NCBI GenBank assembly: GCA_963789265.1
Contig: CAWBKB010000004.1
Span: forward strand, 192,001 to 256,000
Length of the DNA: 64,000 bases
From: an uncultured delta proteobacterium
GTDB lineage: Bacteria > Desulfobacterota > Desulfomonilia > Desulfomonilales > Desulfomonilaceae
Direction: 5' to 3'
Every line of letters begins with the position of its first letter. The first letter of the stretch is position 1. Both the position numbers and the translations under genes were made by a program. Below the pieces are notes generated by a model. That model was not told where the DNA came from and ran no database searches. It saw only the letters and a program-made list of their open reading frames with translations. Positions 4,180-58,414 of the stretch are shown piece after piece.

Positions 4180-5445
4180 ATGAAAGCAAAAGAATCCTAC
4201 GCCGGATTCCCTCCACTCTCCGAAGTTGACCACATAGTGGAGGCTTTGGTCCACGATCCGCCCGATCGGCGATGGCGTATAGTGCGGGATTTATTCCGCA
4301 TTGACGACCGGGAGCGAACGCAGGAACTGATTACCAGGCTTCAACCGTACCTTTACCAAGTCGAAGATTTTCGGGTCAAATCACGTATAACCATAGCCTT
4401 GCAAGCGCTGCACCACCCGGGCGACACAGAGGGGTATCGGCTGATCAAGGGAAAGGGAGCTTTCCAAATGTCCGATCTTGAATCTTGCCGGGGCAAGCAA
4501 TCGGGACAGGAAGTCTTGCGGCACAACTTCGCTCCAGTCGTGGATTTTCATATTCATCCCAAAGTGCCGGATCTGAAATTATTTGCCGACCTGAGCCGGG
4601 CCGGGATCGCCTATGCGGTTATTCTCGCGACGGATACCGATCCCTCGGATGTTGACCGACCTGAAATCAGAGATGAGTTGCGAAAGGAATATTCGGGTTG
4701 TGCCCAATCGCATCGCCTGCCGTTCGACAAGGTGCTCGGACAAATAAGAGCAAGCCTCTATTCTCCGACTCATGTCACGAATCAGGACGTTGCAGACTGG
4801 GTAGAAGACTATCCGGACATTCTCTTCGGGTTCGGATCGGTAAACCTGTCGAAGGACAAATCGTACGTGGAGCGAAAACTCGAAGAGATCCAAGAGCTGA
4901 GGCTTCCGGGAATCAAGCTGCTGCCGTTTTCACAGTTCTTCAATCCTGCTGACAGTGAAAACGTTAATTTGCTCTTCGATTATTGCAGGCAGACCGGCTC
5001 CATCGTCCTCTCTCATACCGGCTGCGCCGCGGGACCGTTCGAGATCCTTGAACTGAGCCGGAATGCACATCCGGGAAATTGGGAACCGGTACTGAAAAAG
5101 TATCCGGACGTCCCCCTCGTCCTGGCCCATTGCGGATCGTACAGTAGTTATATTCCCGGAATTTGGCTCTATGAGGCCCTGCAAATGGGGAAGAAGTTCA
5201 GAAACGTTTTCGCAGACATAGCCGCGGTAGAATGGCTACTGGACCGGGAAACGGTCGTCAAAGAAATTCGAAAGACTATCGGATTCGATCGCATTCTTTT
5301 CGGCACGGATTACCCGTTGCCGCTTTCAGCAGGAGTAAGTATGGCCTATTTAGTCAGTGGGATTAAAGCAAATATTCTTCTGACTGAAAAGGAAAAGCGC
5401 AAAGTCCTGGGCGGAAACGCGGCTGAACTACTGGATATAGGATAA
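4180..5445 (+). CDS. Amidohydrolase_2-family metal-dependent hydrolase with an N-terminal helical extension of about 115 aa
   Basis: VDFHIH, GIKLLP, SHTG, VLAHCG and ILFGTDYP metal-ligand motifs. Confidence 0.85.
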   Translation: MKAKESYAGFPPLSEVDHIVEALVHDPPDRRWRIVRDLFRIDDRERTQELITRLQPYLYQVEDFRVKSRITIALQALHHPGDTEGYRLIKGKGAFQMSDLESCRGKQSGQEVLRHNFAPVVDFHIHPKVPDLKLFADLSRAGIAYAVILATDTDPSDVDRPEIRDELRKEYSGCAQSHRLPFDKVLGQIRASLYSPTHVTNQDVADWVEDYPDILFGFGSVNLSKDKSYVERKLEEIQELRLPGIKLLPFSQFFNPADSENVNLLFDYCRQTGSIVLSHTGCAAGPFEILELSRNAHPGNWEPVLKKYPDVPLVLAHCGSYSSYIPGIWLYEALQMGKKFRNVFADIAAVEWLLDRETVVKEIRKTIGFDRILFGTDYPLPLSAGVSMAYLVSGIKANILLTEKEKRKVLGGNAAELLDIG

Positions 5446-5487: not shown

Positions 5488-6325
5488 GTGGAACAAGGGG
5501 ATCTTACTAAGGAAATCACCGCATTAGCGGCGTTGCCGGACCACAGGATTGAGCTGGCTTCCGCAGCCCTCACCATCGCAAGGTCGGAATACCCGGATCT
5601 TGACGCATCGCGGTACGAAGAGCAGTTGAACGACATGGCCGCAACACTGAATCCAAGAATCCGGCAGATACCGACGTCGGAACGCGCACTCGATGAACTT
5701 AATAGCCTCATATTCAAGGAAGTCGGATTCCGCGGGAACCGCGATGATTACTACGATCCCAAAAACAGTTTCCTCAACGAGGTTCTTGACCGGAAACTCG
5801 GCATTCCTATCACTCTTTGCGTTGTTTACATGGAAGTGGGCAGGCGAGTAGGTCTGCCCCTTTACGGAATAGGTTTCCCGGGCCACTTCTTGACGGGTTC
5901 TGGTCACTGAAAAGAGCAGAGTTTTCATCGACCCGTTCAATGACGGGAAAATTCTCAGCGAAAGCGACCTTGTCAGGATGCTTCATGGTGGATTCGGCAG
6001 ATCGTTGCCTTTCAAGCAAAATCTCCTCGATCCGATGTGGCCCAAACAGATCTTGGTTAGGCTTCTGCGCAATTTGAAAGCCATTTATTGGCGCCGATCC
6101 CAATATTTAAGGGCGCTCCAGATGATCCAATGGATCTTAATCTTGAATCCGGATTCTGCCCCGGACCTTAAAGAGAGGGGGCTAATCTCTGAAGCCATAG
6201 GCGATATCCCAGGAGCAATCGAGGATCTTCAAAGATATTTGGAGCTCACCACCGCAGCGGAAGACGAACAGATCGTAAGAGCGACGATCGAGCGGCTGAA
6301 GAAGAGGAAGACTACGATTCATTGA
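5488..6325 (+). CDS. SirB1/YchA-family (transglutaminase-like core plus TPR) protein; one apparent +1 frameshift near 5899
   Basis: GFRGNRDDYYDPKNSFLNEVLDRKLGIPITL and FPGHFL, then in the shifted frame VFIDPFNDG, RLLRNLK and a TPR-like ERGL segment. Confidence 0.85.
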
Positions 6326-6747
6326 GGACTACCCATAATGGGAATAGACTAATAACGGTGCGAGAAATGGAAAGCGAAGAGCAAGATCTTCAAGAGCTGG
6401 AGAGAGCTAATCCAATTATACAGGTGGCCCTGGAGTTGGGCATCAAAGTCCGAGGCAGCGTGGGAAAGTGCTTCAAAGAGGACAGGCATGCCTCAGACGG
6501 TGTAAAGTCAACTCTCTTTTTCAACCCTGCGCGGAATAGGTTTCAGTGCCGAGACTGCGAGGACGTGGGGGGCACTGTTATAGATTTGGTGTGCCAGTAT
6601 AACGGATGGGAGAGACAAAAGGCCATAGAGTGGTTGCGTCACCGGGTGGAATTTGACCGGTACACAAAGGGTCTCTATCATGGAAAAGGGCGGAAAAAGC
6701 CGTCGGTCGCAAATGCAACGCAAACTGGGAAGGCAGAGGTAAGGTAA
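6322..6747 (+). CDS. Stand-alone CHC2-type zinc-finger protein (primase zinc-binding-domain-like); alternative start at ATG 6367
   Basis: C-x5-H...FQCRDC-x3-GGTVIDLV...AIEWL matches the primase ZBD pattern. No TOPRIM domain. Basic C-terminal tail. Confidence 0.75.
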   Translation: MRTTHNGNRLITVREMESEEQDLQELERANPIIQVALELGIKVRGSVGKCFKEDRHASDGVKSTLFFNPARNRFQCRDCEDVGGTVIDLVCQYNGWERQKAIEWLRHRVEFDRYTKGLYHGKGRKKPSVANATQTGKAEVR

Positions 6748-6752
6748 CAGGT

Positions 6753-8562
6753 ATGGGTTCCGAGTGGAATGCAGATGAAGAAAATCAAAGCCTCCCGAAG
6801 AATTCCACTGTCCGAGAGGTTGCTGAAGCAATTGTGAAGGAAGCGGAAGAGCACAGCCCACCTGAAGACACGCAGAGGAAAGACGAAATCGAGAAACGGA
6901 TACGGGAATCGGAGAAGAAACGACTCATGTTGGCCGAGGCGCTTCACTCTTCCAGAATAGAAATTCAGAGGCTTATGCCGGGCCGGGACAGGGACGCTGA
7001 TAGGGCTCTTCCGTTCGGAGTCTTTGTCCAGTACGGTCCGGATCGAGAGACTGTCGTTATAAAATACCACGGTCGGCTTCATGAAACGAAAGTGCTGCCC
7101 CAGGAACCGGGAACGGAAGACGAACCGGCAAAGGGAACTTTCCATGCCATACGACAGATCGGCAAGAAAAGGGATATTCGCCGAAGAGGGTTCAGGAAAG
7201 GGGAGTTGCTCCTACTTAACAATGACCTCCAGGTATTGGAACCGAGAGGATTTGACCTTGTTTGTGGAGGACTTGCTACTGTGCAGCAGATCCTCAGTGA
7301 GGAAAAGTTGCTGGTCAAAACGGTGGGCGATGAGAATCTCGTGGTGACGAGAGCAGCTCCCCTTTCACTCGTCAAAATAGTCATTGGCGACAAAATTGAA
7401 TACGACCACGAGTCTCTCTTCGCGTACGGGCTCCTCCCCAAGAGCGACGTGGATCGTTTGGCTCTGGAGAAGGTTCCTGACATTCACTATTCCGATATCG
7501 GGGGGCTCGAGGAAGCAGTCGAGTTGATTCGAGACGCCATCGAATTGCCGCACCTATACCCGGACTACTTCAAGGAGCATCGACTGGTCCCCCCGAAAGG
7601 GATTCTGCTCTACGGCCCCCCTGGATGCGGGAAAACGCTCCTTGCCAAGGCAGTGGCCAATAGCCTTGCAAAGCGAATTGAAGCGGAGACGGGGGAGCGA
7701 AAGGTAGGCTTCTTTCTCAACGTAAAGGGCCCGGAACTCCTCAATAAGTACGTCGGCGAAACTGAACAGGCTATCCGCGACTTGTTCGCCCGTGCCAGAA
7801 ACCAAGCCAGGCACCGCACTCCTGTAATAATCTTTTTTGATGAGATGGATTCCATGTTTCGGGTGAGAGGGTCCGGGATATCATCGGACATGGAAGCAAC
7901 GATTGTCCCGCAGTTCCTGGCCGAACTCGACGGCCTTGAACCTCTGGAAAACGTCGTAGTTATCGGAGCTACCAATCGAGAGGATCTTATCGACCCTGCC
8001 GTGCTAAGGCCCGGCCGCCTCGATCGCAAGATTCGAATTCCACGCCCAGAACGAGCGGCCGCACTCGAGATCTTTCCCAAGTACCTTGACTCCCGACCTT
8101 CCACTTGACCCTGTGCTCGTCGAACGCTGCGGAGATCCGGGCCGAGCCATAGACTGGCTCATTTCGACGTTGGTCGAGGAGCTGTACGGGATGACGAAGG
8201 AAAACGAACTCCTGGAAATAACTTATGCCGACGGAACTCAAACGATTCTGTATCTCAAGGATTTCGTGAGCGGAGCCATCATTGAACACATTGTCAACCG
8301 GGCAAAGCTGTCCGCGGTAAAAGATCTGGTCAACAGAGGGACAAGAGGTATCACTTTCGATCATCTGCAGACGGCGCTCCGTCGGGAATTCGAAGAAAAT
8401 GAGGATTTGCCCAGCAACACGAATCCAACGGAATGGTACCGGATAATAGGTTCAGGTGGAGACAGAGTAATCAGGATTCGCTCTTTATTCTGCAAGAGAG
8501 TCGCTATTTGCGAAGAACAGAAGCCTGGAGAGTTTTTGGAGGTAACCGACCGCCTCAAATAA
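6753..8562 (+). CDS. arc: ARC/Mpa-type AAA+ ATPase; apparent +1 frameshift near 8087
   Basis: N-terminal coiled coil, LEKVPDIHYSDIGGL, Walker A GPPGCGKT, FLNVKGPELLNKYVGETE, Walker B IIFFDEMD, R-G-S-G-I-S-S-D, and the Mpa-specific ENEDLPSNTNP. Confidence 0.93.
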
Positions 8563-8587
8563 ATGGGCTGAATATATGTGAGGGAGT

Positions 8588-10142
8588 ATGAGCATACCCA
8601 AGGTGGTTGGCATTGAAGAAGAATACGCAATCCACTTGCAAGGAGACCACGGTCTTACACCATTTCAGGCCTCCTGTGCACTCGTAAATTCGTACGCTCG
8701 CAAGGTAGGGCTGCGAGCACCTGGGATTAAACTGCTCTGGGATTACGGTCATGAGACGCCATTCCACGATTTTTCGCGGAGATCTCTTCGGAAAGAGTAC
8801 AGGCCAGGAAATCGTCTCCTCCGCAGAAAATCTTCGTCTTAACGCAGTGTTGCCCAACGGCGCCAGACTGTATACGGACCACGGGCACCCCGAATATTCG
8901 ACACCGGAGTGTCTGAGTGCCAGAAACGCGGTTGCTTGTGACAAAGCGGGGGAGCTGATTTTTCGGGAAGCTCTTGCCGCGGTGAGAGAATTGATGCCCC
9001 GGCTGAAGATCGGGCTGTTCAAGAACAACATCGACTATCAGGGGCACAGCTACGGGTGTCACGAGAACTACCTGATGGATGCGCGGGCACACGAAGAATG
9101 CTTCGTTCGCAGCCCGGAGAAAGCGGTGCGAATCCTGGTACCGTTTCTCGTCACTCGCCAGCTATTTGCGGGAACAGGCCGGGTCGGCTCAGCGAAGCCG
9201 CATGATCCATCGGTTCCGTACCGGATGTCGCAGCGGGCCGACTTTATCGAGACTATCTTCGGTTTGGAGACCATGTACTCGAGGCCCATTATCAACACCC
9301 GGGCAGAGCATCACGTGGATCCGAAACGTTTTCGGCGACTGCACTTGATCCTGGGTGACGCAAACATGAGCGAGTTCGCGGGCTTTCTCAAGATCGGCAG
9401 CACTCAAATAGTGCTACAGATGCTGGAAGACGGTTTCCTGACTGAAGACCTGACGCTCAAGGACCCGGTCAAGGCTATGCGAACGGTGGCGAAATTCGAC
9501 TCCCGGCTCGAACTGGCCGACGGTCGCACTATAAGTCCTCTGGATCTTCAGAGGCTGTTTCTGGCGGCAGCCAAACGGTACCATCGATCCGGGCACGGTT
9601 CTCAGGTACCTGATGCCGATCTGATTTTGCAAGCCTGGGCGTACGCTCTGGATGGATTGGAGAAACTCAGGCTTTCCGAAGACTTTGAGTTTGTGGAGGA
9701 CCCTCTGAACTTGAGCAAGCGTCTGGATTGGGTCATAAAACTGTGGTTGATTCATCGCTACCGAGAGAGCAAAGGGTGCTCGTGGGAAACCCAGGAGCTA
9801 AGTGTATTTGATCTGCAATATCACAACGTTGAACCTGACAGCGGCTTGTTCTGGCATCTTCAGAGTAAGGGCTTGGTTGATAGAATATTGGAGGACGATG
9901 AGATCTCGCGGGCAGTCAGAGAGGCTCCGCCCGACACCAGAGCCTACTTTCGCGGAAAGTGCATAGAAAAGTTCCCGAACGAGATCCACTTTGTTAACTG
10001 GGAAGTCGTGGGCTTCGATCACGGCGAAAGTCATCGCATGATACCGCTTCTCAACCCCCTGAAGGGCACCAGGGACCAATTCCGGGAAGTCTTTGAGATG
10101 TGCACGAATTCCAGGGAATTGGTGAAAATGGTCCAGGCATGA
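8588..10142 (+). CDS. dop: Depupylase/deamidase Dop; apparent +1 frameshift in a T-run near 8772
   Basis: VVGIEEEYAI, Dop-loop WDYGHETP, NGARLYTDHGHPEYSTPEC, SYGCHENYL, RRLHLILGDANMSE and PPDTRAYFRG. Confidence 0.9.
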
Positions 10143-10174
10143 ATGAGACTGATGGATCTGACTGGAGATAATTC

Positions 10175-10378
10175 ATGAGCGAATCTAGGCAGACACAAAT
10201 CCCTCAGAGGAAAAGAAGTAAGCAAAAGGACTCGACTGAAACAGAGACCTCGCTTCCGTCGATCTCCGGCGGAGAAAAGAAGCAGAAGCTTGAAGAGTTG
10301 GATGAGTTCATGGAAAGCGTGCTCCAAAAGGCAGGTGAAGAGTTCCTGGATGAGTTCAAACAGATTGAAGGGGAGTGA
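10175..10378 (+). CDS. pup: Pup-like prokaryotic ubiquitin-like protein with non-canonical C-terminus (QIEGE)
   Basis: 67 aa with a disordered N-terminal half and an acidic helical C-terminal half that aligns without gaps to the Pup C-terminus (VL-x4-E-x-F-x5-Q-x2-G-E). Lies between dop and pafA. RBS GGAG. Confidence 0.85.
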   Translation: MSESRQTQIPQRKRSKQKDSTETETSLPSISGGEKKQKLEELDEFMESVLQKAGEEFLDEFKQIEGE

Positions 10379-10381
10379 CAT

Positions 10382-11872
10382 TTGCAAACCCGGGTCTTCG
10401 GCACAGAGTGCGAGTATGCCCTGTTTTGCAGCCCCAGGGATGGGGAATCAAGAATCTATCTGGATGGCGAGCCGCTGCTGGAACATTTGAAAGGACTCAC
10501 ACCTTACCTAGTCGCTTCCTTGAAGGCCACAGGACGACCGTATGCCGGTGAGTTTCTGGGAAATGGAGGCCGGTTTTACATCGATCGCGGGGCGCATCCC
10601 GAGGACGCGACACCGGAATGTGCCAGGGTGAGGGATGTTGTCGCTCATGAAAAAGCGGGTGATCGAATCGTCCAGGAACTGGTCGAATTTGCCGGCTCAC
10701 ACATGGCCGAGGTCGGTAAGCGCGAAAAGATACGAATCTTCAAAAATAATGTGGATTCGTTCGGGAACACTTACGGCACTCACGAGAATTATCTCGTCAC
10801 GCCTCAAGCTATGGAAAACATCAGATTTATGGTTCCATTCCTGGTCAGTCGCCAGATATTTTCGGGTGCGGGCAAAGTGGCAACCGGGGGCACGCAGGGT
10901 CAAAGTTGGTATCAGTTGACTCAAAGGGCAGACTTTATCGACCGGATCTTCAGTGACAGAACGTCGCAGGTCCGCGGCATCATAAATCTTCGCAAACGGG
11001 AGATACCCAAACACGGACAAAACCTGCGGCTTCACCTCCTGGTTGGAGACTCCAACATGTCCGAGGACTCGCTCGGGCTAAGGGTTGGGACGACCGCCCT
11101 TGTACCAAGGCTGCTCGAAGAAGATTCTTTCGAGAATTTCCCGGCACTGGCATCCCCGGTAAAAGCCATGCGGGACATTTCCCAATCTTTTGGTAGCACT
11201 GTGGAACTCGAAAATCGCCGCCACCGATACCATGCTCTGGATATACAAGAAATCTATCTCAACAGAGTCCATAATTTCTTCGAAGATCACGAATCCAATA
11301 ATTGGGAAAAAGAAATCCTCGACCTTTGGAGACGTACGCTGGCAGGTCTGCGAGAAGTAAAAATATCGCACGAGAACTGGAACCTTGAGGATGACCCACA
11401 GGACTTGCACCGCAGAATCGACTGGCTCATCAAACTCTGGCTCATCAACAGGGTGCAGCACCAGAGCGGGCTCGATTGGCAAGATCCTCGACTGAGGCTG
11501 TTGGACGTGACATATCACGACCTCGATCCCCGAGAAGGCCTTTTCCAGAGGTGCCAGGATCTGGACCTGATTGACCGTATGGTAGACGAGCAGGAAATCC
11601 GCAAGGCCCAGACCAAACCACCGCAAGACACCCGGGCTTGGACCAGGGGCACCATTATCCAGCATGCCTGGGGGAGAAACGTCGAGACAATCGTCAAGAA
11701 CTGGGAAGCCGTTCAGATTATCGCAAAACCGCAGGGATGTGAGTCTTCTCACCCTTTCGGCAGACATCGGCGCATGGTCAATCGACTGGAAATAAAACTG
11801 GAAGATCCACTCAGGGCGGAGGACACAGCCGCTCTGGAAAAAGTGATGAAATTCGCTGAAGCTTGGAACTGA
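10382..11872 (+). CDS. pafA: Pup-protein ligase PafA
   Basis: MQTRVFGTECEY, FLGNGGRFYIDRGAHPE, KNNVDSFGNTYGTHENYL, RLHLLVGDSNMSE and PPQDTRA. TTG start 3 nt after the pup stop. Confidence 0.9.
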   Translation: MQTRVFGTECEYALFCSPRDGESRIYLDGEPLLEHLKGLTPYLVASLKATGRPYAGEFLGNGGRFYIDRGAHPEDATPECARVRDVVAHEKAGDRIVQELVEFAGSHMAEVGKREKIRIFKNNVDSFGNTYGTHENYLVTPQAMENIRFMVPFLVSRQIFSGAGKVATGGTQGQSWYQLTQRADFIDRIFSDRTSQVRGIINLRKREIPKHGQNLRLHLLVGDSNMSEDSLGLRVGTTALVPRLLEEDSFENFPALASPVKAMRDISQSFGSTVELENRRHRYHALDIQEIYLNRVHNFFEDHESNNWEKEILDLWRRTLAGLREVKISHENWNLEDDPQDLHRRIDWLIKLWLINRVQHQSGLDWQDPRLRLLDVTYHDLDPREGLFQRCQDLDLIDRMVDEQEIRKAQTKPPQDTRAWTRGTIIQHAWGRNVETIVKNWEAVQIIAKPQGCESSHPFGRHRRMVNRLEIKLEDPLRAEDTAALEKVMKFAEAWN

Positions 11873-12147
11873 TGCGCAGTCAAATGAGCGACAATCCTGG
11901 ATAAGATACGGTGGGGCAATCCTGCCCACGCGGGACTGCCTGTCCCGCGTTCCGCGGGATCACTCCGGACTTCGATTCGGGGGTAGCGCCGGCGTCCCTG
12001 CCGGCGATTCGCCAACAACCCCGCGTCCCGCGGGGAGGCCGGTCCTACTGGATGCCCGCGTATGCGGGCATGATGAAATGTAGGGGCGGGTTTCAAACCC
12101 GCCCCTACCAGAAACACGGTGTCACTTACTTGAAAGCCAGTCGGTAT
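11866..12147. repeat. Composite MITE-like repeat containing REP-type palindromes
   Basis: Shares ends and internal segments with 50378-50627. Its right part recurs inverted at about 18463-18530. Contains GTAGGGGCGGGTTTCAAACCCGCCCCTAC. Confidence 0.7.
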
Positions 12148-12175
12148 GAGACCCGGAAAGGTGCTTAGAAACGAT

Positions 12176-12876
12176 ATGGACCGGGAGATGGAACAAATTC
12201 CAGAGAATGCGACCGGTCGCGATGGAATCCGTCACGTTCTCTTAGTGCAATACGCACTTCACGAGGCAAACCATCATTCAGAGTCTGCCGGCAGTGCGGC
12301 GGATAGTTTCCCCACGGTCCCTAAGGCCCACACTCTTGCCGATATATACAAGTGCTTGCACCAGGGACAATTCGGGGTTGGGCACAGCATCGACGATCCG
12401 GTCAGGTTTGCCGGCAGGCTTGAACTTGAACTCGTCAAAGCCGACCCCGACTCTGCCGACCCGATTCTGGAAACGGTTTCCTCCGTGGCTCAGTTTTTCG
12501 TGTCAACCTGCGGCCGTTTCGACGGGCATTTGCGGGTCGCGACGAATTAGCGTCGCGTCTCTTGGTAGGGCTTTGCCTTAATTCCGCTACAAGGCAGAGG
12601 GGAACGATGAACGATTTCATCGAATCTCTGGAATGGTTTAGGGATTTGAACAACAGCGGAGAGTTGGCGGTTCAAGGCAGATCGTACATGTTCCCGAATG
12701 AGCAGGCAAACCGATTCGTAACCGAAGTGGCGTATTGCATTCATACGTTCGGAAATATACCGGTCTTGAGCCATTCATCGGTCTATAAGAAGCACAATTC
12801 CCCGTCCTACAGGGTGGTGGACCGAGAAGCCTTGGAACATTCGCCTTTGGCTTATCTTCTTAAAAAAATACAATGA
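12176..12876 (+). CDS. Conserved hypothetical protein; apparent frameshift near 12487
   Basis: The N-terminal part (DIYKCLHQGQFGVGH) joins the shifted-frame part (RVNLRPF...SHSSVYKKHNSPSYRVV). The stop overlaps the next ATG. Confidence 0.6.
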
Positions 12877-15056
12877 GTTGTATACACAAAGACAATACCT
12901 ATTGCTGTGCGGTGCTGCTTCAGCCGCCCCCAGGTGATCTAACCGGCCCGTATCCAGCTTTAGCATATCTGAAATCCTACGCTGCGCTGCATGGGCACAC
13001 AGTGCGGGTTCGGGACCTGGGGATCGAGGCTCTCCACTTTCTTACCCAAAAAGACAAGATTGCCGGCTACCTGGAGCGGGCAGCGTCCATGAGACGGGAA
13101 CTCGAATCCAAGGCCTCTCTGGATTCTGACGAGCTACGCCATTACAGACTGCTGGTTGTGGCTGCATGGATCGCGACCAAGCCGGACATGATCCCCACAG
13201 CTTTGAGATCTTTCAGTGACAGTAGCCAGTTTTACAACTATCGTCATTACAGTAGATCCTGCCACGTTCTCAACGCGTTCTACGGGTTGCTGTCCGCTGT
13301 TCATCATCCCACTGCGGTAACCCCGTCCGAATATCCCACGGCCCAGGCTCTCAATTCCATGAAAAACGTGCTTGCACACCGGCGCACGGATCTTAATCCG
13401 TACATGGAATACTACGAGGAGATTCTGTTTCCTGCACTTGCCGGACAGGCTCCCACAGCGATCGGTCTATCAATGGAATTCGCGGGGCAGTCGGTTCAAG
13501 CGCTGGTTCTTGGTCATCTGCTCAAGGAGCTGTTCCCTGAGATTCATATAACAATGGGAGGGGCTTATTTATCTCAATGGGTGATGTTGATGGGAGAAAG
13601 ACAGCTATCAGAGCTGTTTTCCTGTACCGACTCAGTAATCTGCGGGGAAGGCGAATCTGCCTTTGTGCAACTCTTGGACGGAATTGAAGCAGGCCTTTCG
13701 CCGTCGAGCGTTCCTAACCTGATTTATCGAGACTTACGTACCGGTGAGTTTCATCATCCTGCATCATTGGAATACCCCGATATTAATAGCCTTCCACCTC
13801 CCGACTTCTCAGACCTCGATCTGAAGTCATACCTCATTCCTAAAACGGTGATTCCCTATGCCATCAGTCGGGGATGTTACTGGGGCAAGTGCGTCTTTTG
13901 TCAGAACAGATACGGCGAGAACCGAATGCGCAAATACCAGACGGTGCCCGTGGAGAAGTCCATAGCCGAGATGTCTTACCTCGCCGAGAAATACGGCACC
14001 AACCACTTTAACTTCAGTAATGACGTTTTGGACCCTTCCTATTTGCAACGGCTGAGCGAAGCACTCATTGCGTCGAAGAAAAAGTTCTTGTGGAACACTG
14101 ACTTGCGTGCGGAAAAGGCGTTTTCCAGAGATCTCTGCGGCCGCATGGCCCGTGCAGGTCTGAACAGTGTCGCCATTGGACTCGAAAGCGGGTGCCAAAG
14201 AACCCTGGATGCAATGAACAAAGGCAAAGACGTTCAGACTGTGCGGCAGGTCATGAAAGACCTTTACGACGCTGGAATTGCAACTCAAGCCATGGGATTC
14301 TTTGGCTTTCCAGAGGAGACCGAAGAAGAGGCTGAAAGAACTGTGGCGTTCTTGGAGGACAACGTGGCCGCAATATCCTATTACGTCATCGGCCTGCTCA
14401 TGGTAGTTCCAGGTTCCAGAATGCATGAGGAGCCGCAGAAATACCGTGTATCATCAATTAGTTATGAGGGCAATGAACTGATGGCTCCGCCGCCTGTTTG
14501 GAGGGCGGAAGGAAGGATTCCGGCCGCGGCGGTGAATCGACTTTATCACCGGTTGAGTCATCTCGAAGAGACCTTCGCCATAAATGAATATCCGTACGTG
14601 GGGGCGCTTTCCACGAATCATTCGTTTCTGTACTTCGAGACGGGACCGGATGTGCTCAAAAGGCTAAAGAGGGAAGAAAGCGATCGGCATCTCAAGCTGC
14701 TTCGGATCATGGCAACCAAGGACAAGAGTGAAAGAGGAAAGAAGCTCAAGTCCCTACTGCCGCGATTCGCGCTTCCGTGTCTGATTTATCACACGCACTT
14801 TCTCATAGATCAGATTGAGAACGGCGATAAGACCACCCGCAGTCGTCCGCGCCCCTTCTCTCCCAACGGCTGGGATTATCTTGTGGGTCCGTCGGATATG
14901 GTAATTCCTATTCGAGAGGTTGAGAGGGGGTTTCTGGAGGCTATAGACGGCAAGAAGAATCTGAAATCAGTTTTGGCCAAGTATGAGGATGCTGACGTTG
15001 AGAGGCTTGTTTCGATCTTGTTGGGCCTCGTTTCCCGGGGCCTGATTGTCATTTAG
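12873..15056 (+). CDS. B12-binding-domain radical SAM protein
   Basis: PYPALAYLKS, SRGCYWGKCVFC (CxxxCxxC), IGLESG and FFGFPEET. Possible winged-helix/PqqD-like C-terminal domain. Confidence 0.88.
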   Translation: MSCIHKDNTYCCAVLLQPPPGDLTGPYPALAYLKSYAALHGHTVRVRDLGIEALHFLTQKDKIAGYLERAASMRRELESKASLDSDELRHYRLLVVAAWIATKPDMIPTALRSFSDSSQFYNYRHYSRSCHVLNAFYGLLSAVHHPTAVTPSEYPTAQALNSMKNVLAHRRTDLNPYMEYYEEILFPALAGQAPTAIGLSMEFAGQSVQALVLGHLLKELFPEIHITMGGAYLSQWVMLMGERQLSELFSCTDSVICGEGESAFVQLLDGIEAGLSPSSVPNLIYRDLRTGEFHHPASLEYPDINSLPPPDFSDLDLKSYLIPKTVIPYAISRGCYWGKCVFCQNRYGENRMRKYQTVPVEKSIAEMSYLAEKYGTNHFNFSNDVLDPSYLQRLSEALIASKKKFLWNTDLRAEKAFSRDLCGRMARAGLNSVAIGLESGCQRTLDAMNKGKDVQTVRQVMKDLYDAGIATQAMGFFGFPEETEEEAERTVAFLEDNVAAISYYVIGLLMVVPGSRMHEEPQKYRVSSISYEGNELMAPPPVWRAEGRIPAAAVNRLYHRLSHLEETFAINEYPYVGALSTNHSFLYFETGPDVLKRLKREESDRHLKLLRIMATKDKSERGKKLKSLLPRFALPCLIYHTHFLIDQIENGDKTTRSRPRPFSPNGWDYLVGPSDMVIPIREVERGFLEAIDGKKNLKSVLAKYEDADVERLVSILLGLVSRGLIVI

Positions 15057-23144: not shown

Positions 23145-25433
23145 TCACGCGATTCCTTGTTTCGAGTACTTTTCCAAGATGTTAATCATTTGAGGGTACC
23201 TACGCTCGCTAGCTATCGAAAACGGTGTCCTTCCATTCGCATCAGCTACGTCGGTGGATGCTCCCCAAGCAAGCAGCATTTCCACCACGTCCGCTTGGGA
23301 TTTGTCGCATGCCCAGATGAGGGCTGTACTGCCATCATGATCCGCGGCTTCGAGATCCGGTCCGGTAGCAAGGACAAGTTTCACAACCTCGGTCCGGCCA
23401 CTAATGCAGGCCCAGATCAAGGCTGTGCGTCCGCTTTTGTCCTGGGCGTCTATAGCGACGTCGTGGTCCAGCAAGGTTTCCACGATTTCCGGGGTTCCAT
23501 AGAGCGCGGCCCACATAAATACTGTTCTCCCGGCATTGTCGTGAATGTTGACGTTCGCTCCGTGAGTTAGCAGAAGCTTGGCAACCTCCTCGCGATTTCG
23601 ATAACATGCCCACATCAAAGCGGTCCTCCCAGCCTTGTCTTTGGCGTTGAGGTCGACAACAGCCGGCAGCAGATGCTCTACATCTTCCAGACTACCCGCT
23701 ATGCACGCCTCTATGAGCACTTCGGCATCTATTTCGACCTCCCCATTCTCGTCCAACACGATCGAAGAAGTGGAGGCGACCCCGGGTGCGGATTCCTCTA
23801 TATCGGCACTCAAGTTCGCGTCTGCGATCTGCGGCGGAAAATCCACTTTGGCACCCGCATCTGTGAGCAGGCGGACCACATGCCAGTGGCTTTTTGTCGA
23901 CGCCCAGTCCACAGCAGTAAGTCCAGCCGCATCTTTCATCTCAACATCAGCTCCGTGGTCCAGGAGAAATTCCACCACTTCGCTCAGCCCTTTGTAAGAG
24001 GCTCTCATTAAAGCAGTGAGCCCATGCTTGTTTGCAGCGTTAATCTGCGCGCCATGTTCCAGCAGGATTCGCGCAACCTCTGTTTGCCCAACGGAGCAGG
24101 CTTTCATCAGAGCGGTCTTCCCTGCATTGTCCTGCATTTCCACACTGGCGCCGCGTTGCAGCAGGAGTTGCACGATTTCCGCGTGACCTTTGTATGCGGC
24201 CCTCATAAGAGGCGTAAGACCATATTTGTTTCCGGCGTTGACATTTGCTCCTAAGTCCAGTAGCCGCTGCACTGCGTCAATCAGCCCGGAACCCGCAGCA
24301 TCAATCAAATCTTTATTTCCGTATTTGGAGAGTGCTTCCACGAGGAATCCGCGCTCCAGAGTCAGTTCCAGAGTGTCGGTATCACCTCCGTCCGGGGCCT
24401 CCAACATCGCCTCAATAGTCTTTTCGGCTTCCGATGTGATAGCTGCCCCTCTCTCCAAGAGAAGTTCAACCACCTCGCCGTGCGATTCCTGGGAGGCCCA
24501 AACCAGAGCGGTCATGCCGGCCTTGTCTCCAATGTCAAAATCAGCTCCACGGTCCAACAAGAGGTTTACCACTGAGATACGGCCGACCCGAGCACCCCAC
24601 ATGAGGGCGGTGCGTCCTGCTTTGTCCTGGCGATTGATTTCGACACCCGTGTCCAGAAGAGATTTCACAACGGCCAAATGGCCTCTATCCGAGGCCACCA
24701 TGAGAGGGGTCCATCCTGCATTGTCTTCGATGTCGGGATCGGCCCCCTTTTCAAGCAGGAGTTCGACTATTTCAAGAAAGCCTCTGTGAGCCGCTTTCGC
24801 GAGAGCGGTTCTCCCGGCCTTGTCAACTGCATTCACGTCTAGTCTATGCTTGAAAAGCAAGTTCATCATGCCAACATGGCGATCGAACGCCGCCATCATC
24901 AGAGGGCTTCTGCCGGCATCGTCTTTCGCGTTGGGATTCGCCCCTTTGTCCAAAAGTCTCGCGACTATGATTGGGCGGCCGGCTGTCAAGGCAACCATAA
25001 GAGCGGTCTTGCCATCTGAAGTCCGAGCCTCTACGTTGGCACCGGCGTTCAGGAGTATGCCGAACAATTCCAGGTGTCCATAATATACGGCAGCCATCAG
25101 AGGGGTGTACCCTTGATTGTCCTGGCCTTCAAGGTCAGCGCCCAGTCCTAAGAGGACCCGGGCTGCCATTGTTTGGCCTGTAATGCAAGCCGCCATCAAG
25201 GCCGTGCACCCTTTTTCGTCTTTTGCATTCACATTGGGCTTCCGTTCAAGAAGTTCCTTGACTACCCGATAATGACCGCCGTACATGGCCTTCATCAAGG
25301 GTGTAGCGCCGGATACGTCCCGCGAGTCGACGCTCACACCTTTTGCCAAAAGGTGTCGCACTTGATCGGGCTGATTCTTTTGGACAGCCTCAAACAGTGC
25401 TCTGCTTTTGTCTCGTACAAAAAGCATCGCCAT
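23145..25433 (-). CDS. Ankyrin-repeat protein (762 aa, about 18-20 repeats)
   Basis: Repeated G-x-T-[AP]-L-M-x-A...V-x-x-LL-x-x-GA-D-V-N units separated by two acidic linkers. Confidence 0.95.
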   Translation of the reverse strand: MAMLFVRDKSRALFEAVQKNQPDQVRHLLAKGVSVDSRDVSGATPLMKAMYGGHYRVVKELLERKPNVNAKDEKGCTALMAACITGQTMAARVLLGLGADLEGQDNQGYTPLMAAVYYGHLELFGILLNAGANVEARTSDGKTALMVALTAGRPIIVARLLDKGANPNAKDDAGRSPLMMAAFDRHVGMMNLLFKHRLDVNAVDKAGRTALAKAAHRGFLEIVELLLEKGADPDIEDNAGWTPLMVASDRGHLAVVKSLLDTGVEINRQDKAGRTALMWGARVGRISVVNLLLDRGADFDIGDKAGMTALVWASQESHGEVVELLLERGAAITSEAEKTIEAMLEAPDGGDTDTLELTLERGFLVEALSKYGNKDLIDAAGSGLIDAVQRLLDLGANVNAGNKYGLTPLMRAAYKGHAEIVQLLLQRGASVEMQDNAGKTALMKACSVGQTEVARILLEHGAQINAANKHGLTALMRASYKGLSEVVEFLLDHGADVEMKDAAGLTAVDWASTKSHWHVVRLLTDAGAKVDFPPQIADANLSADIEESAPGVASTSSIVLDENGEVEIDAEVLIEACIAGSLEDVEHLLPAVVDLNAKDKAGRTALMWACYRNREEVAKLLLTHGANVNIHDNAGRTVFMWAALYGTPEIVETLLDHDVAIDAQDKSGRTALIWACISGRTEVVKLVLATGPDLEAADHDGSTALIWACDKSQADVVEMLLAWGASTDVADANGRTPFSIASERRYPQMINILEKYSKQGIA

Positions 25434-32672: not shown

Positions 32673-32864
32673 CCCCTTTCAGCGTCAGCCCGTGTAATTT
32701 GATCATAGCACTCAAGCGGTAGCGTGATGCCCTCACCATACCAGAATTGCCTCAGAATCAAAATTTGTTATCTTACGGAAGCAACGCGCGGGGTCCCGGT
32801 TCCAAATTCACTGTTCCAGTTAATTGAGACGGGGCCCCAATCGAAAAGGTCGAAAAGAGAGCAA

Positions 32865-34038
32865 TGGATGAACCCTTCTCACAATAAGAGTTTTAACCTC
32901 CAGATCTTGCTGATTTTGGCATTGGGCCATCTCGTGACCGACATTTACCAAGGCGCGCTACCGGCAGTCCTTCCCTTCCTTAAAACGAAGCTTGCCATTT
33001 CCTATACGATGGCCGGCGTGATTATGATGGCCGCGAATTTTACCTCCTCGGTCGTCCAGCCGGTGTTCGGCTATTTGTCGGACAAGAAGGAGAAGATGTT
33101 CTTGCTGCCGCTGGGCAGTTTCCTGGCGGGCGCAGGCATGTGCCTTGTCTCCGTGCCCGACAATTACCTCCTGGTCCTGTTTCTGGTAGTAGTCAGCGGC
33201 CTGGGAGTGGCCGCCTACCACCCTGAAGGTTACAAAACCGCCTATTTCTTCACCGGCGACAACGTGGCTACCGGGATGTCGGTCTTTTCCGTGGGCGGCA
33301 ACTTGGGTTTTGCTCTGGGACCTATAATTTCGCTTTCCATTATCACGTATCTGGGATTTGGTTACTTCCCCTTGATGGTGATCTTTTCTCTTATATTTCT
33401 TTCGCTTCTGCTTTACGCGTGGAATTCCCTTGCCCGTAAAAAGCCGGATGTGGCCATGCGAGCGAAGGGCATGGAGGCAGCGCGAAAAGGGGCGTACAGT
33501 TTCTCTTTTTCTCATTATCGGGACTGTGATTATGAGATCCTGGACCCAGATCGGGCTCATGACCTATATTCCCTTCTATTACATTGACATTTTAAAAGGA
33601 GAGCCTCTGTACGCAGGCAAGCTCGTGTCAGCCCTTCTTCTCGGGGGTGTTGTGGGCACAATCGCGGGCTCCATTATAGCCGACAGAATCGGCCACAAGA
33701 GGTACCTGATTCTTTCCATGGCCCTTACAAGCCTTTTATTCCCTCTGATCTTCGTAGCACACGGTTTCATGCTGTTCATCACTCTTGGCGTGTTCGGCAT
33801 GGTGCTGATTTCCACATTCACCGTCACTATCGTAATGGCGCAACAGCTTCTGCCCAGAAATCTGGGAATCGCATCCGGGCTCATGGTGGGATTTGCAATC
33901 GGCACGGGCGGACTTGGCGTAACAATACTAGGAGTGATCGCGGATCATTTTGGGGTGCTGAATGCTTTGAAATCCATAATGGTCCTGCCGGTGGCAGGGC
34001 TATTGCTCTGCCTGCCGATCAGGTATCAGGGGAATTAA
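32865..34038 (+). CDS. MFS transporter, Fsr (fosmidomycin-resistance)-like; apparent frameshift near 33498
   Basis: GHLVTDIYQG, QPVFGYLSD, AAYHPEG, GGNLGFALGP and ASGLMVGFAIG. Confidence 0.85.
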
Positions 34039-41673: not shown

Positions 41674-43687
41674 TTGATTGCAAAGATCTTGATCGCTAAC
41701 AGGGGCGAAATCGCTTCAAGGATAATTCGTACGTGCAAACGCATGGGCATCGGCACAGTTGCGATCTATTCAGAGGCTGATTTTCGCTCTCCGTATGTGC
41801 AGGAGGCGGATGAAGCAACATGCGTCGGTGCAAGTCCTTCGCAGGAGTCGTACCTCGTCAGGGAAAGAATCGTTGAAGCAGCCCTTGCCCATAGTTGCCA
41901 GGCAATCCATCCGGGTTACGGTTTTTTGTCCGAGAACTCGAAATTCGCTGAAATGGTGGCCGAAGCCGGTCTTGTTTTTGTCGGCCCTTCCGCGGCCGCA
42001 ATTGCTATGCTGGGGGACAAAGTGGCATCTAAGGCCCTCGCAATACGCGCGGGTGTGCCTGTAGTCCCAGGATACCACGAAGCCCTTGGAGACCCTCAAG
42101 AGGCCGCTGCCATCGCAGTGAAGATCGGGTTCCCCGTCTTGCTGAAACCGGCCGCAGGAGGAGGCGGCCGAGGAATGCGCATCGTAAACTCAAAGGAAGA
42201 GATCGCTCCGGCCCTCGCTGCATGTCGCGAAGAAACGAGAAAAAGCTTTGGGGACGAAAGAATATTCATGGAGCGCTATATTTCCAAGCCGCGCCATATA
42301 GAGATTCAGATTGTAGCCGATCAACATGGCAACGTTGTCCATCTAGGGGAAAGGGAATGCTCAATACAGCGCCGCTATCAGAAGGTTATTGAAGAAACCC
42401 CGTCTCCGGTGGTCGATGAGGCGCTCCGCGAAAGAATGGGCCGAGTCGCCTGCGCCCTCGCCGTTGAAGCCGGGTACACCGAGCGCGGGGACGGTGGAAT
42501 TTATCCTGGACGGGGAAAAGAATTTCTATTTCCTGGAAATGAATACTCGCCTTCAGGTTGAACATCCCGTGACAGAGATGGTGACCGCCGTGGATCTGGT
42601 TGAATTGCAGATCCGTGTCGCCGCGGGGCAGCCGCTGCCCGTCTCGCAAGAAGGCGTGGAAATGAAGGGGTGGGCTATAGAAGCCCGCATTTGCGCCGAA
42701 GATCCGGCCCGGGGCTTTGTCCCCACCACCGGCATGGTTACGCGTTACGCAGTCCCCCGCGGCAAGAATGTGCGAGTGGACAGCGGCATTGACGCGGGAA
42801 GTGTAATAAGCATCTATTACGATTCATTATTGGCCAAGGTGATTGCGTTTGGTGAGAGCAGAGAAGAGGCCAGGAGGACTCTTGTAAGGGCCCTGAACGG
42901 GTACCACATAGAAGGATTGATCACCAATGTTGATTTTGCCAATGCCATCATAGGTCATCCTGCGTTTGCCGCCGGGGAATTGTCTACGGACTTTATCGAG
43001 GAACACTTTGGCGGGGGACAATCCAAGATTCCGCCCGACGGAGAAAAGATTCGTTACATGGTTATAGGGGCTGCATTGATATACCAGACGCGCCAGAGTC
43101 TCGCGCGGCAATCTTTGAAGCCGATGACAGCACTGGTTGGCGGGCCGCCGGCACGGCTCGCTTCTCATCATTACGTCGTGAAAGTCGATGAAGATGTATT
43201 CGAAGTAGAACTCAAAGGGGATCAGGGATCCCGACGCTGGATCGCCCGGGTGAATGACAAATCGTATGAGGTGATCACTCCGGAATTCGAATACTATCGC
43301 CGCCGGCTCAAGCTTAAGATTGACGGCACTTACCGTATGTTCCGTTTTCAGTACAGCGAAAATCACATACAGGGTTTTTTTTGTGGGATTGTTCGCATGA
43401 TCGAAATCTACACTCCGCAGGAATGGAGCCTAACGCATTACATGCCGCGAGAAAAGAAGATCGTTCCGGAGAACGTTCTCAAATGCCCGATGCCCGGCCT
43501 GCTGGTCGCGGTATCTGTTCAAGAGGGTTCTTATGTCCGGCGTGGTGACGAGCTTTTACGCATGGAGTCTATGAAAATGGAAAGCGGTATTGCATCCCCG
43601 GTGGACGGGCAGGTTGAGAAAATCCTTGTTCATTCAGGCCAAACGGTAGAAACGGATGAGACGCTCATGACTTTCAAGCTTTCATGA
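41674..43687 (+). CDS. pccA: Biotin carboxylase plus biotin carrier subunit (propionyl-CoA carboxylase alpha-like); apparent +1 frameshift near 42481
   Basis: ILIANRGEIA, HPGYGFLSEN, GGGGRGMR, ERECSIQRR, LEMNTRLQVEHPVTE and biotinylation motif ESMKME. Confidence 0.88.
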
Positions 43688-52898: not shown

Positions 52899-53579
52899 CT
52901 ACGTGCCGTGAATCTCACACGTGGCACAATCAATGGAAGCTAGTTGCTGACATAGTTTTGCTCCGGTCATGGCATCGGGTGCCCAATAATCCGATCCCAC
53001 ATATTTGCAGACTTTTTCATTAGTCAACCCGCCCCCGATAATCGTGGGCACAGGAGGCCTGCCTCGTTGCGTATCTTCATGTAATAAGGTGATGGTTTCA
53101 CGCATCGTATCGTACGATACGGTCAACAGCCCTGAAATACCAACAGCGTGTGGCGAGCATTCTCGTGTGGCCTTCAAGAAATCTCCAGGCGACACATCTA
53201 CACCAAGATCGATCAGCTCAAAGCCGTGGCACCGCAGAATCACCCCGAAGAGGTTTTTGCCAATGTCGTGGATGTCTCCTTGAACCGTCCCCAATACTAC
53301 CCGCCCGGACGCTTTTACGTGAATACTATTCTCAAGAATGCGTTGCAACATTTCGGAGACCTGGCGCATTATCTCCCCTGCCATCATAAGCCCGGAAAGA
53401 TAATAACGACCCTGCTCGTAATTGGCTCCGACGTAGCCTAGGGCTTGCTGGCAGCTTTCTAGAATGCTCAAAGGCGGTTCTTCTTTTTCCAGTAGACGCT
53501 GAACCTCTTTCAGCACTTCCTGCTCGTTCAAGTCCGTGAGGAGAGTAATCAACTCTAGATGCCGGAGATCCGGATTCAT
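52899..53579 (-). CDS. Corrinoid (B12-binding) protein
   Basis: GTVQGDIHDIGKN, DLGVDV, SGLLT and IGGG. Confidence 0.9.
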   Translation of the reverse strand: MNPDLRHLELITLLTDLNEQEVLKEVQRLLEKEEPPLSILESCQQALGYVGANYEQGRYYLSGLMMAGEIMRQVSEMLQRILENSIHVKASGRVVLGTVQGDIHDIGKNLFGVILRCHGFELIDLGVDVSPGDFLKATRECSPHAVGISGLLTVSYDTMRETITLLHEDTQRGRPPVPTIIGGGLTNEKVCKYVGSDYWAPDAMTGAKLCQQLASIDCATCEIHGT

Positions 53580-53612
53580 AGTACGACCTCTGTATTCGTC
53601 TGAAAACCGGCC

Positions 53613-54383: not shown

Positions 54384-54571
54384 CGTCGATCTCTATATAT
54401 CTATATAAGACGACTGTCCAGGGTCAAGTCAAATGGCCCATAATCCGCATTCGCTAGTCCATAGGCGCAGGTTCGACCTGCCTCTGGGGTGGATGATGGC
54501 GCATAAGGTGCCGACGGTTTTCGGGGATTCCTATGGCGGACCCAAAAACTGGGCGTCACCCATCTTTTTGC

Positions 54572-54608
54572 TTGACTCAGGCGTCACCTCTATATATAAC
54601 TATATAAC
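54572..54608 (+). promoter_or_regulatory. Sigma-70-type promoter of the corrinoid operon overlapping a TATA-rich putative operator
   Basis: TTGACT-N17-TATAAC. CTCTATATATAACTATATAA resembles CTCTATATATCTATATAA at 54391-54408. Confidence 0.55.
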
Positions 54609-54682
54609 TGTATATCATGAGTAGTCGAGCGGCTCGAGCCCCTAGAGGAGTTTGCAAGGATTACGGAGGAGCAGGTTTTGTA

Positions 54683-56413: not shown

Positions 56414-56546
56414 GGAGAGATGCGACTTCTCCGCGCCTTATGCAGCCGCGGTACGAAATACGATGGGGACCGTCAGGGAATTACCGCAAGAACTCCCCGG
56501 CTCTTCGCGGGAAGAGGGGGGCAACATGGAGAGAAAGGAGGCAAGC

Positions 56547-58306: not shown

Positions 58307-58414
58307 GGCTTCGAAACAAGAATATTCGTTTCTGGTTCGTCGTGAGCGGGGCCGATCACCTAGTAGGTTTGCGGTGGTCGGCCTTGTGTATCTTTTTTCA
58401 AAGGAAGCAGTCAA

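Follow-up and report, generated by a model that had tools for sequence, protein, structure and literature searches.

A putative proteasome-independent Pup-type tagging system with a divergent tag and ligase in an uncultured Desulfobacterota bacterium

A 64,000 nt stretch of the genome of an uncultured delta proteobacterium (positions 192,001 to 256,000 of contig CAWBKB010000004.1, assembly GCA_963789265.1), hereafter referred to as the window and numbered from its first base, contains an operon that probably encodes a working, proteasome-independent Pup-type protein tagging system of a Desulfobacterota bacterium; we estimate the probability of this reading at around 0.7. Four consecutive genes specify an ARC/Mpa-type AAA+ unfoldase, the deamidase and depupylase Dop, a small Pup-like tag and a divergent PafA-like ligase (Table 1), the last of these starting with a TTG codon 3 nt past the stop codon of the tag. 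An initial annotation made from the sequence alone had proposed just such a set of genes, separated by 25, 32 and 3 nt, and this is borne out both by the open reading frames (ORFs) and by Pfam matches; all of the motifs it recognised (GxExE, Y.D...HPE, HENY and RLH..GD.N) are likewise present in the sequence, and the system is, as it described, complete and divergent. The window holds the sole Pup_ligase locus in the 6.06 Mb genome, which is in nine contigs, 95.6% complete and has a contamination estimate of 6.07%. What is observed directly comprises the gene content, the family memberships, the retention of catalytic positions, the lack of a proteasome and a tag-ligase interface obtained by prediction. 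Scans for promoters and terminators returned chance levels of matches (10 against 6.5 ± 2.6, and 16 against 12.7 ± 3.9, respectively). The gene order recurs, with conserved flanks, in seven other genome loci; loci of this kind are referred to here as type A.

Pup has been defined as a small protein, between 50 and 90 aa in length, that can be conjugated through a G-[EQ] at its C terminus (PMC2588565), and this general description extends to the tag in the window, which is 67 aa long and ends E-G-E. The window tag itself has no Pfam match at E <= 0.01, and weak matches to the Pfam Pup family were found in six of the eight type-A tags, the best having an E value of 4.8e-5. The highest scores attained by any type-A tag were 16.8 bits with the Pfam model and 13.2 bits with TIGR03687, compared with 55 bits for the positive control, a canonical Pup of this phylum. 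When the eight type-A tags were aligned using hhalign with 46 distinct canonical Pups, taken from other loci and chosen by their GG[EQ] ends, the match was 96.7% (E 4.3e-10) over 64 columns, with the alignment running through the last residue. On the strength of this profile-profile alignment we regard the tag as a divergent Pup: judged by its sequence, it is a true, unrecognised homologue of that family. In type-A tags the canonical di-glycine is replaced by an acidic residue followed by a glycine, and the N terminus is rich in lysine.

A profile of the tag was used to search 5.8 billion proteins; 8000 candidates were scored, of which 277 clusters constituted the tag family at E <= 0.001. The best 120 of these 277 clusters all scored at least 90 bits, lacked any Pfam domain and, where a name was given, were called 'hypothetical protein' or bore an evident misannotation. 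Organism labels attached to the tag clusters were Deltaproteobacteria, Desulfomonilaceae, Thermodesulfobacteriota, Desulfobacteraceae and Desulfatitalea. Among these best 120 clusters the C terminus is EGE in 96 and EGQ in 23, the single other case being probably truncated, and Q[VIM]EG[EQ] is found at the end of 119. Tags in 20 metagenome loci all finish with [ED]G[EQ] (EG[EQ] in 19 and DGE in one), with a terminal glutamine in nine. The maintenance of this end in the best 120 clusters of the family and in the metagenome loci is taken as a sign of purifying selection.

Dop and the PafA-like protein both belong to the Pup ligase family. The Pfam Pup_ligase model (PF03136, cut-off 25) matches the two pieces of Dop with 26.2 and 438.3 bits and the PafA-like protein with 378.3 bits, whilst the intact orthologue of Dop in a genome of the same genus (G001) scores 453.5 bits with TIGR03688, under the cut-off of 492.3. 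A tree was constructed with IQ-TREE in quick mode from 58 rows, representing 34 loci chosen from approximately 90; three long-branch rows were kept, and are not relied upon. The type-A Dop clade (SH-aLRT 98) is nested within the clade of Dop proteins (SH-aLRT 100, 25 rows), and the PafA-like proteins of type A group together (SH-aLRT 100) outside the clade of canonical PafA (97). There are 84 alignment columns identical in 95% or more of canonical PafA and in 90% or more of canonical Dop sequences; of these, all eight members of the type-A ligase retain 64, and the type-A Dop retains 73. In the Dop of Acidothermus, Cui et al. (2021) name E8, E10, Y92, E99, H155 and H241 as magnesium ligands and D94 as the catalytic residue, with R90 and R227 also being named (PMC8599861). 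Mapping these by eye through the alignment, the equivalents in the window ligase are E9, E11, Y66, E74, H134 and H218, catalytic D68, and R64 and R204, all of which are present in 8/8 members. The ligase is a fast-evolving protein, which appears to be drifting yet keeping its catalytic residues.

The Dop-loop is described as being present in all Dop and absent from all PafA proteins, and a Dop from which this loop had been removed, and in which the alpha-loop had been swapped, became a ligase (PMC8599861). The upstream gene in the window encodes a Dop-loop, with a conserved tryptophan (WDY) also found in three genomes of the same family (G001, G009 and G014), whilst the downstream gene lacks one, the distance from GxExE to the catalytic aspartate being 56 residues rather than the approximately 88 found in the neighbouring Dop; hence the downstream gene is assigned as the ligase. 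A complex of this ligase and the tag was predicted in three runs with ipSAE scores of 0.87, 0.86 and 0.87, the highest score among three controls being 0.00; in calibration, the mark set for this score was reached by 116/157 solved complexes and 2/215 mismatched pairs. At least 80% of contacts were common to the runs, with a pLDDT of 60-61 for the partner. Residues 38-67 of the tag are predicted to make contacts, and the C-terminal stretch, 57-67, figures in the confident contacts, as do the active site residues 11, 13, 68-72 and 125-134 of the ligase. Since the complex of PafA and Pup has already been solved (4BJR), this prediction indicates a likeness to the known pair rather than demonstrating binding.

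Pup_ligase genes were detected in 3/24 genomes of the same family, in 0/16 of the sister family, and in 10/400 other genomes sampled evenly across the phylum. Besides the window, type-A loci are found in four genomes of the same family (G001, G009, G014 and G400), in two of another family (G235 and G293) and in a Syntrophobacteraceae metagenome-assembled genome (MAG). Canonical loci, with the order ARC, Dop, Pup, PrcB, PrcA and PafA, were found in five genomes (G042, G087, G066, G060 and G241), representing four lineages if G042 and G087 are counted as one; the Pup of G042 ends QRGGQ. Two further loci stand on very long branches: one (L117, in G330) combines an ARC-like gene and a Pup ending QRGGE with two ligase paralogues that are very divergent, and no proteasome genes adjoin it; the other (L118, in G161) consists solely of two paralogues, likewise very divergent.

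The unfoldase is readily recognised, with Pfam scores of 131.5 bits for the AAA domain and 31.8 bits for the proteasomal ATPase OB domain, and the orthologue in G001, which is 93% identical, scores 600 bits with TIGR03689, over the equivalog cut-off of 504.75. Relative to canonical proteins, type-A ARCs have an insert of around 30 residues in the first OB region and a conserved C-terminal region of their own. The GQYL tail is reported to dock Mpa to the 20S particle (PMC8223512); G[QE]YL is found at the end of 0/6 type-A ARCs from genomes and 0/13 from metagenomes, and of both ARCs visible to their ends in canonical loci of the phylum (G042 and G066, GQYL or GEYL). No 20S PrcA or PrcB subunit was found in the 95.6% complete genome containing the window, where the single match to PF00227 is hslV. 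Of five further type-A genomes tested, four have a single match of HslV size, and G001, which is 88% complete, has none. By comparison, four canonical-type genomes of the phylum each have three PF00227 matches, two of which are beside the ligase; G330 has one.

How conjugation proceeds, which proteins it targets and what ARC does are inferred from homology, along the following lines. The PafA-like ligase would use ATP to activate, by phosphorylation, the side-chain carboxylate of the last glutamate of the tag, which would then be joined to lysines of target proteins. Tags ending in glutamine, which account for between about a fifth and almost half of the relatives, would first be deamidated by Dop, and Dop may also strip the tag from its targets. 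The ARC hexamer would bind the tag and unfold or dismantle the proteins carrying it. This process would not feed a 20S proteasome, and its outcome, by analogy with that proposed for Corynebacterium, may instead be remodelling or disassembly; remodelling rather than degradation is to be expected because no proteasome is encoded and ARC is without the docking tail. The combination of an acidic-Gly-[Glu/Gln] end and fixed accessory partners suggests a specialised use.

A number of observations weigh against this interpretation. The tag is under the Pup thresholds of both Pfam PF05639 (27 bits) and TIGR03687 (41.45 bits), and the canonical Q-[KR]-G-G-[QE] end is absent, GG[EQ] occurring in 0 of the best 120 clusters and 0/20 metagenome tags. 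The ligase scores 331.5 bits with the PafA model TIGR03686 (cut-off 551.3), a value nearly equalled by that for the Dop model (314.3), and matches solved Dop structures (223-224 bits) slightly better than solved PafA structures (205-207 bits). It also has one clear loss: in 8/8 type-A ligases, the DEPHAD that follows the conserved arginine reads KREIP[KR], whereas EHHAD is found there in the type-A Dop. A pairing of these new basic residues with the new glutamate of the tag was considered and is not supported, as ligase residues 205-206 are outside the confident contacts and the type-A Dop keeps EHHAD. In the free tree the PafA-like clade is on a long stem (1.39), outside both the PafA and the Dop clades, and its placement is unsettled. 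Constraining it to group with canonical PafA produced a tree 0.16 lnL better than the free one (p-AU 0.505), so that a joint clade is not rejected, and PafA orthology is compatible with these sequence data rather than demonstrated by them. Two further points concern the locus as a whole. The constant linkage to genes for a radical-SAM enzyme, an amidohydrolase and a conserved 243 aa protein (unk243) is without counterpart in known pupylation, and could mean a different, narrower chemistry. Finally, in the four metagenome runs compared below, no contig identical to the window spans the frameshift that divides dop at 8771, and a genuine lesion of this gene in this one strain is conceivable.

The four core genes are embedded in an operon of nine, in which three genes are upstream of arc (encoding the amidohydrolase, a SirB1-like protein and a small CHC2-type zinc ribbon protein) and two are downstream of the ligase (encoding unk243 and a B12-binding radical-SAM enzyme). 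The CHC2 gene overlaps that for the SirB1-like protein by 4 nt and stops 5 nt before arc, the radical-SAM gene overlaps unk243 by 4 nt, and in most loci the ends of the genes overlap or stand 3-44 nt apart. The intact 278 aa SirB1-like protein of G001 scores 176 bits for Transglut_core2 and 67.5 bits for TPR_9. The CHC2 protein has a weak match to Pfam Zn_ribbon_DnaG (E 0.0043), and its N terminus resembles the RTasDnaG family of PADLOC (E 5e-12). unk243 is predicted by AF2 to adopt a confident fold (pLDDT 83.5), with no match in Pfam, NCBIfam or PADLOC, no usable match in Atlas and no convincing structural relative, the best results being E 0.28 in a Foldseek search of the PDB and a Z score of 6.1, to a designed solenoid, in a wide VIA-align search. 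The best NCBIfam match of the radical-SAM enzyme is the C-methyltransferase of RiPP maturation, TIGR03975 (131 bits), and the protein glutamine C-methyltransferase family is also matched. Screening all nine proteins with PADLOC gave only generic AAA, zinc ribbon and radical-SAM likenesses, and a reading of the operon as a defence system was dropped.

A metagenome scan seeded with unk243 alone identified 80 loci. Where there was enough flanking sequence, relatives at least 39% identical to unk243 had the PafA-like gene directly upstream in 29/30 cases and the radical-SAM gene directly downstream in 29/30, and all nine genes were present in 10/10 loci with 7 kb of upstream flank. More distant homologues were accompanied by a Pup ligase in 0/31 cases and by such a radical-SAM gene in 0/24. 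Six loci (L158, L159, L162, L163, L165 and L166) have unk243 homologues of 33-39% identity adjoining an amidohydrolase homologue (49-57%) in the absence of Pup genes, and two of these pairs share contigs with a full nine-gene operon; unk243 and the amidohydrolase seem to constitute a functional pair by themselves. The accessory genes were found in none of the six non-type-A loci of the phylum and in none of 79 Pup loci from other phyla.

These associations permit an alternative in which the tag and ligase serve one dedicated pathway with the amidohydrolase, unk243 and the radical-SAM enzyme, rather than modifying many proteins: one of these proteins might itself be tagged or remodelled, or the radical-SAM enzyme might modify the tag, or a tagged substrate, in the manner of a RiPP. 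The strict adjacency and tight packing of the genes, the confinement of the accessory set to type-A loci, the pairing of unk243 with the amidohydrolase elsewhere and the RiPP-maturation and glutamine C-methyltransferase matches all point in this direction. However, the radical-SAM matches are all far under the family cut-offs (131 against 281.85 bits in the case of TIGR03975), unk243 has no recognisable fold or family that would provide a chemical link to the tag, genes in one operon may have separate substrates, and the presence of ARC and Dop is typical of general, reversible tagging. On balance we consider a dedicated pathway unlikely. Rather more speculative still is the idea that the nine genes encode one undescribed machine, in which the radical-SAM methyltransferase would modify the end of the tag or its target, with the amidohydrolase and unk243 as partners or substrates; if true, it would tie ubiquitin-like tagging to radical-SAM chemistry in anaerobes.

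In a further alternative, tagged proteins would still be destroyed, ARC handing them over to HslV, ClpP or another protease distinct from the 20S particle. ARC does pass the equivalog model named for the proteasome ATPase, HslV is encoded in the genome, and either the OB insert of around 30 residues or the distinctive C-terminal region of ARC could form a new docking surface. Set against this, hslV lies between an xerC-like gene and hslU, and so adjoins the gene for its own ATPase; the conserved nine-gene block is without any protease gene; the C termini of ARC vary between lineages, unlike a docking motif; and the one proteasome-free system described in the review PMC8223512 only unfolds its substrate. 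Degradation by this route therefore seems to us improbable, and unfolding or remodelling remains the preferred outcome for proteins tagged by the type-A system.

The integrity of the operon in this strain depends on how the interruptions of its genes are interpreted. Comparison with G001 (89% identical at the nucleotide level) reveals four uncompensated indels of one base each within 9.5 kb of the window, and each of them cuts a gene that is whole in G001. The region was compared with contigs from four public metagenome runs (X1-X4); no RNA run was among those listed as containing the locus. The extra base in arc is missing from a 323 nt contig of X1 that otherwise shows no difference from the window, and that in the SirB1-like gene is missing from contigs of X1 and X2 that are identical to the window. 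The other two positions, 8771 and 12486, are spanned only by relatives of around 91% identity (from X3 and X4; from X4 in the case of 8771), in which the reading frame is maintained; the X1 contig stops at 12485. Two further genes in the window, encoding an MFS transporter and a biotin carboxylase, are split according to Pfam, the ATP-grasp model in the latter being broken at positions 158/156. In total, single-base indels divide at least six genes across the 64 kb, and window-identical contigs contradict two of these indels; this number of split genes in 64 kb of a nine-contig genome indicates an indel-prone assembly rather than decay. All four core genes are unbroken in the seven other type-A loci.

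The arc frameshift is thus an assembly error, and that in dop is very likely to be another; real, inactivating lesions in these genes had been named in the initial annotation as a possible refutation. The opposing view, in which both frameshifts are genuine and this strain retains the operon as a pseudogene remnant, appeals to the stop-interrupted arc and dop of the deposited assembly and to the lack of coverage of 8771 by a window-identical contig. It conflicts with the contigs lacking the extra bases at 8084 and 5898, with the similar cuts in at least six genes, including that for biotin carboxylase, as is typical of indel-prone assemblies, and with the 90-93% identity, free of further stops, of the proteins to their intact G001 orthologues outside the indels; we regard it as very improbable. 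The assembly needs polishing, and pseudogene calls in this genome call for caution.

The host is a sulfate-reducer-type soil bacterium of the Desulfobacterota. Among the matches listed for the PafA-like protein, the nearest named relative is that of the Syntrophobacteraceae MAG (49% identity), the remainder (36-41%) being from Poribacteria, Rokubacteria/NC10, Actinomycetota and Nitrospirota. The propionyl-CoA carboxylase beta (carboxyltransferase) gene 30 kb downstream has named relatives of 82-88% identity, none from an actinobacterium, labelled as Deltaproteobacteria, Desulfomonilaceae, Thermodesulfobacteriota or, in some cases, generic Pseudomonadota/Proteobacteria MAGs. Taken together, the relatives of these two proteins place the genome, itself a MAG, in the Desulfobacterota/Thermodesulfobacteriota, near the Syntrophobacteraceae and Desulfomonilaceae. 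Anaerobe-type genes are also found in the window, encoding parts of corrinoid methyltransferases, a number of B12 radical-SAM enzymes and a molybdopterin oxidoreductase. In G001, the operon and a 97%-identical orthologue of the carboxyltransferase are on one contig of 628,967 bp. The window contig is accordingly not actinobacterial and does not look chimeric. That the operon comes from an actinobacterium or another Pup-bearing organism, through mis-binning or mis-joining, is scarcely credible despite the contamination estimate of 6.07%, given this shared contig, the flat GC of 0.48-0.56 across the window, the position of the operon within a contig of 332,585 bp, the identical gene order, flanks included, in genomes of the same genus and family, and the separation of type-A ligases in the tree from actinobacterial PafA, which is at most 41% identical among the matches listed.

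Several other features of these regions merit description. A repeat of around 200 bp with a palindromic core separates the PafA-like gene from unk243 in the window; it has 72 matches in its own genome (40 of the 339 candidates scored) and no match in Rfam. Over the repeat, contig depth in four metagenome runs is 120-234; over the remaining 29 bins it is 0-25. The insert that G001 carries at this position is another, longer one. A gene for a full-length acetate-CoA ligase (1020 bits in NCBIfam) stands between dop and the tag in one of the families of the phylum (positions 7876-9843 of L113, in G235, and 8591-10558 of L114, in G293). Elsewhere in the window, a corrinoid-dependent methyltransferase cluster comprises genes for two B12-binding proteins, a URO-D/MtaA-like protein, a pterin-binding protein, CobW, a DUF1638 protein and a GntR regulator; it fits with the anaerobic metabolism of methyl groups, and some ORFs in it seem truncated or split. 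Ankyrin repeats make up nearly the whole of a 762 aa protein (636 bits with Pfam Ank_2), the size of which is unusual for a free-living bacterium.

Table 1. Features of the window, with positions numbered from its first base and the number of type-A genome loci (of seven) in which each operon gene is found
Feature	Position	Strand	Type-A genome loci	Details
Amidohydrolase, first of nine genes	4180..5445	+	6/7	Amidohydro_2, weak N-terminal HEAT; G001 orthologue PF04909 100 bits
SirB1-like protein	5488..6325	+	4/7	Transglutaminase-like core 2 and TPR_9; two ORFs, 5488-5910 and 5978-6325; extra base 5898
CHC2 (DnaG-type) zinc ribbon protein	6322..6747	+	6/7	Small; Lys/Arg-rich tail
ARC/Mpa-type AAA+ unfoldase	6753..8562	+	7/7	ORFs 6753-8108 (451 aa) and 8086-8562 (158 aa); extra base 8084; no C-terminal GQYL
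Dop (deamidase/depupylase)	8588..10142	+	7/7	ORFs 8588-8842 (84 aa) and 8751-10142 (463 aa); has Dop-loop
Pup-like tag	10175..10378	+	7/7	67 aa; Lys-rich N terminus; C terminus QIEGE
Divergent PafA-like Pup ligase	10382..11872	+	7/7	496 aa; TTG start; no Dop-loop
Dispersed palindromic repeat	11920..12145	.		About 200 bp; palindromic core; between PafA-like gene and unk243
unk243, conserved 243 aa protein	12146..12876	+	7/7	Two ORFs, 12146-12550 and 12562-12876; base missing near 12486
B12-binding radical-SAM enzyme	12873..15056	+	7/7	Class-B methyltransferase type; Pfam Radical_SAM 65.5 bits, B12-binding 22.3 bits
Indel	5898			+1 base; splits SirB1-like gene
Indel	8084			+1 base; splits arc
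Indel	~8771			+1 base (T, inside T-run); splits dop
Indel	near 12486			-1 base; splits unk243
Ankyrin repeat protein	23145-25433	-
MFS transporter, split	32724-33587 and 33430-34038			Pfam
Biotin carboxylase, split	41674-42561 and 42389-43687			ATP-grasp model broken at positions 158/156
Corrinoid-dependent methyltransferase cluster	52899-59218

These results delineate a large, coherent and hitherto unannotated branch of the Pup world, proteasome-free and belonging to anaerobic Desulfobacterota of soils, sediments and wastewater, the tags of which are missed by annotation pipelines. It represents a natural experiment on the role of the penultimate residues of Pup, acidic-Gly here in place of Gly-Gly, and on the extent to which a Pup ligase can drift with its active site kept. 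The radical-SAM enzyme and two uncharacterised proteins are candidates for revealing the use to which proteasome-free pupylation is put outside the Actinobacteria, and proximity labelling based on pupylation might gain an orthogonal pair in the tag and ligase. In the literature, no account was found of the Desulfobacterota clade, the [ED]-G-[EQ] tag or the nine-gene operon, a comparison that extended neither to the UBact study nor to the supplementary alignment of the 2008 survey discussed below. UBact, attributed to Lehmann et al. (2017), is reportedly a Pup-like tag of Gram-negative bacteria that occurs alongside homologues of Mpa, Dop and PafA, and is said to have its own C-terminal signature and usually to be accompanied by proteasome genes. 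Searching the type-A tags against NCBIfam at E <= 10 returned only the 13.2-bit Pup match and no model named for UBact.

The initial annotation viewed pupylation as characterised in Actinobacteria, with related loci in Nitrospirae and sporadic predictions elsewhere. The variant in the window is indeed divergent, but Pup systems that are non-actinobacterial or free of a proteasome have already been published (PMC2588565, PMC8223512). Iyer, Burroughs and Aravind (2008) describe them beyond the Actinobacteria without linkage to a proteasome, including in the deltaproteobacterium Plesiocystis, and also in Rhodopirellula (PMC2588565). Type-A loci resemble these systems in their distribution outside the Actinobacteria, the lack of proteasome linkage and the G-[EQ] end of the tag. 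However, the ligases in that account have an insert of four transmembrane helices and a linked gene for a membrane protein (PMC2588565), whereas no such insert is seen in the window ligase, which aligns end to end with soluble PafA and Dop structures and is accompanied by ARC and Dop.

The canonical Pup-proteasome loci of Actinobacteria, Nitrospirota and others (Mpa/ARC-Dop-Pup-PrcB-PrcA-PafA) have homologous versions of ARC, Dop, the tag and the ligase; the catalytic and magnesium-binding residues are kept, and the two-helix C-terminal half of the tag aligns from end to end. By contrast, type-A loci are without 20S subunits and the GQYL of ARC, and have a different motif at the C terminus of the tag. 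Furthermore, the type-A tag gene abuts that of the ligase, whereas in canonical loci prcBA lies between the two, in most cases occupying around 1.5-2.3 kb.

A close parallel is with Corynebacterium glutamicum, in which proteasome-free pupylation leads to the disassembly of ferritin by ARC, according to the review PMC8223512. As described there, that species has the same four components in the same order (arc-dop-pup-pafA) and no prcBA; in both cases the tag is encoded ready with a terminal glutamate, and unfolding or remodelling is expected rather than degradation (PMC8223512). The window differs in coming from the Desulfobacterota, with an anaerobe-type gene context, in having a tag with a lysine-rich N terminus and with [ED]-G-[EQ] at its end in place of G-G-[EQ], and in the ligase, which has lost DEPHAD and is on a long branch outside canonical PafA. 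Its four genes are, moreover, embedded among those for the amidohydrolase, the SirB1-like and CHC2 proteins, unk243 and the B12 radical-SAM enzyme.

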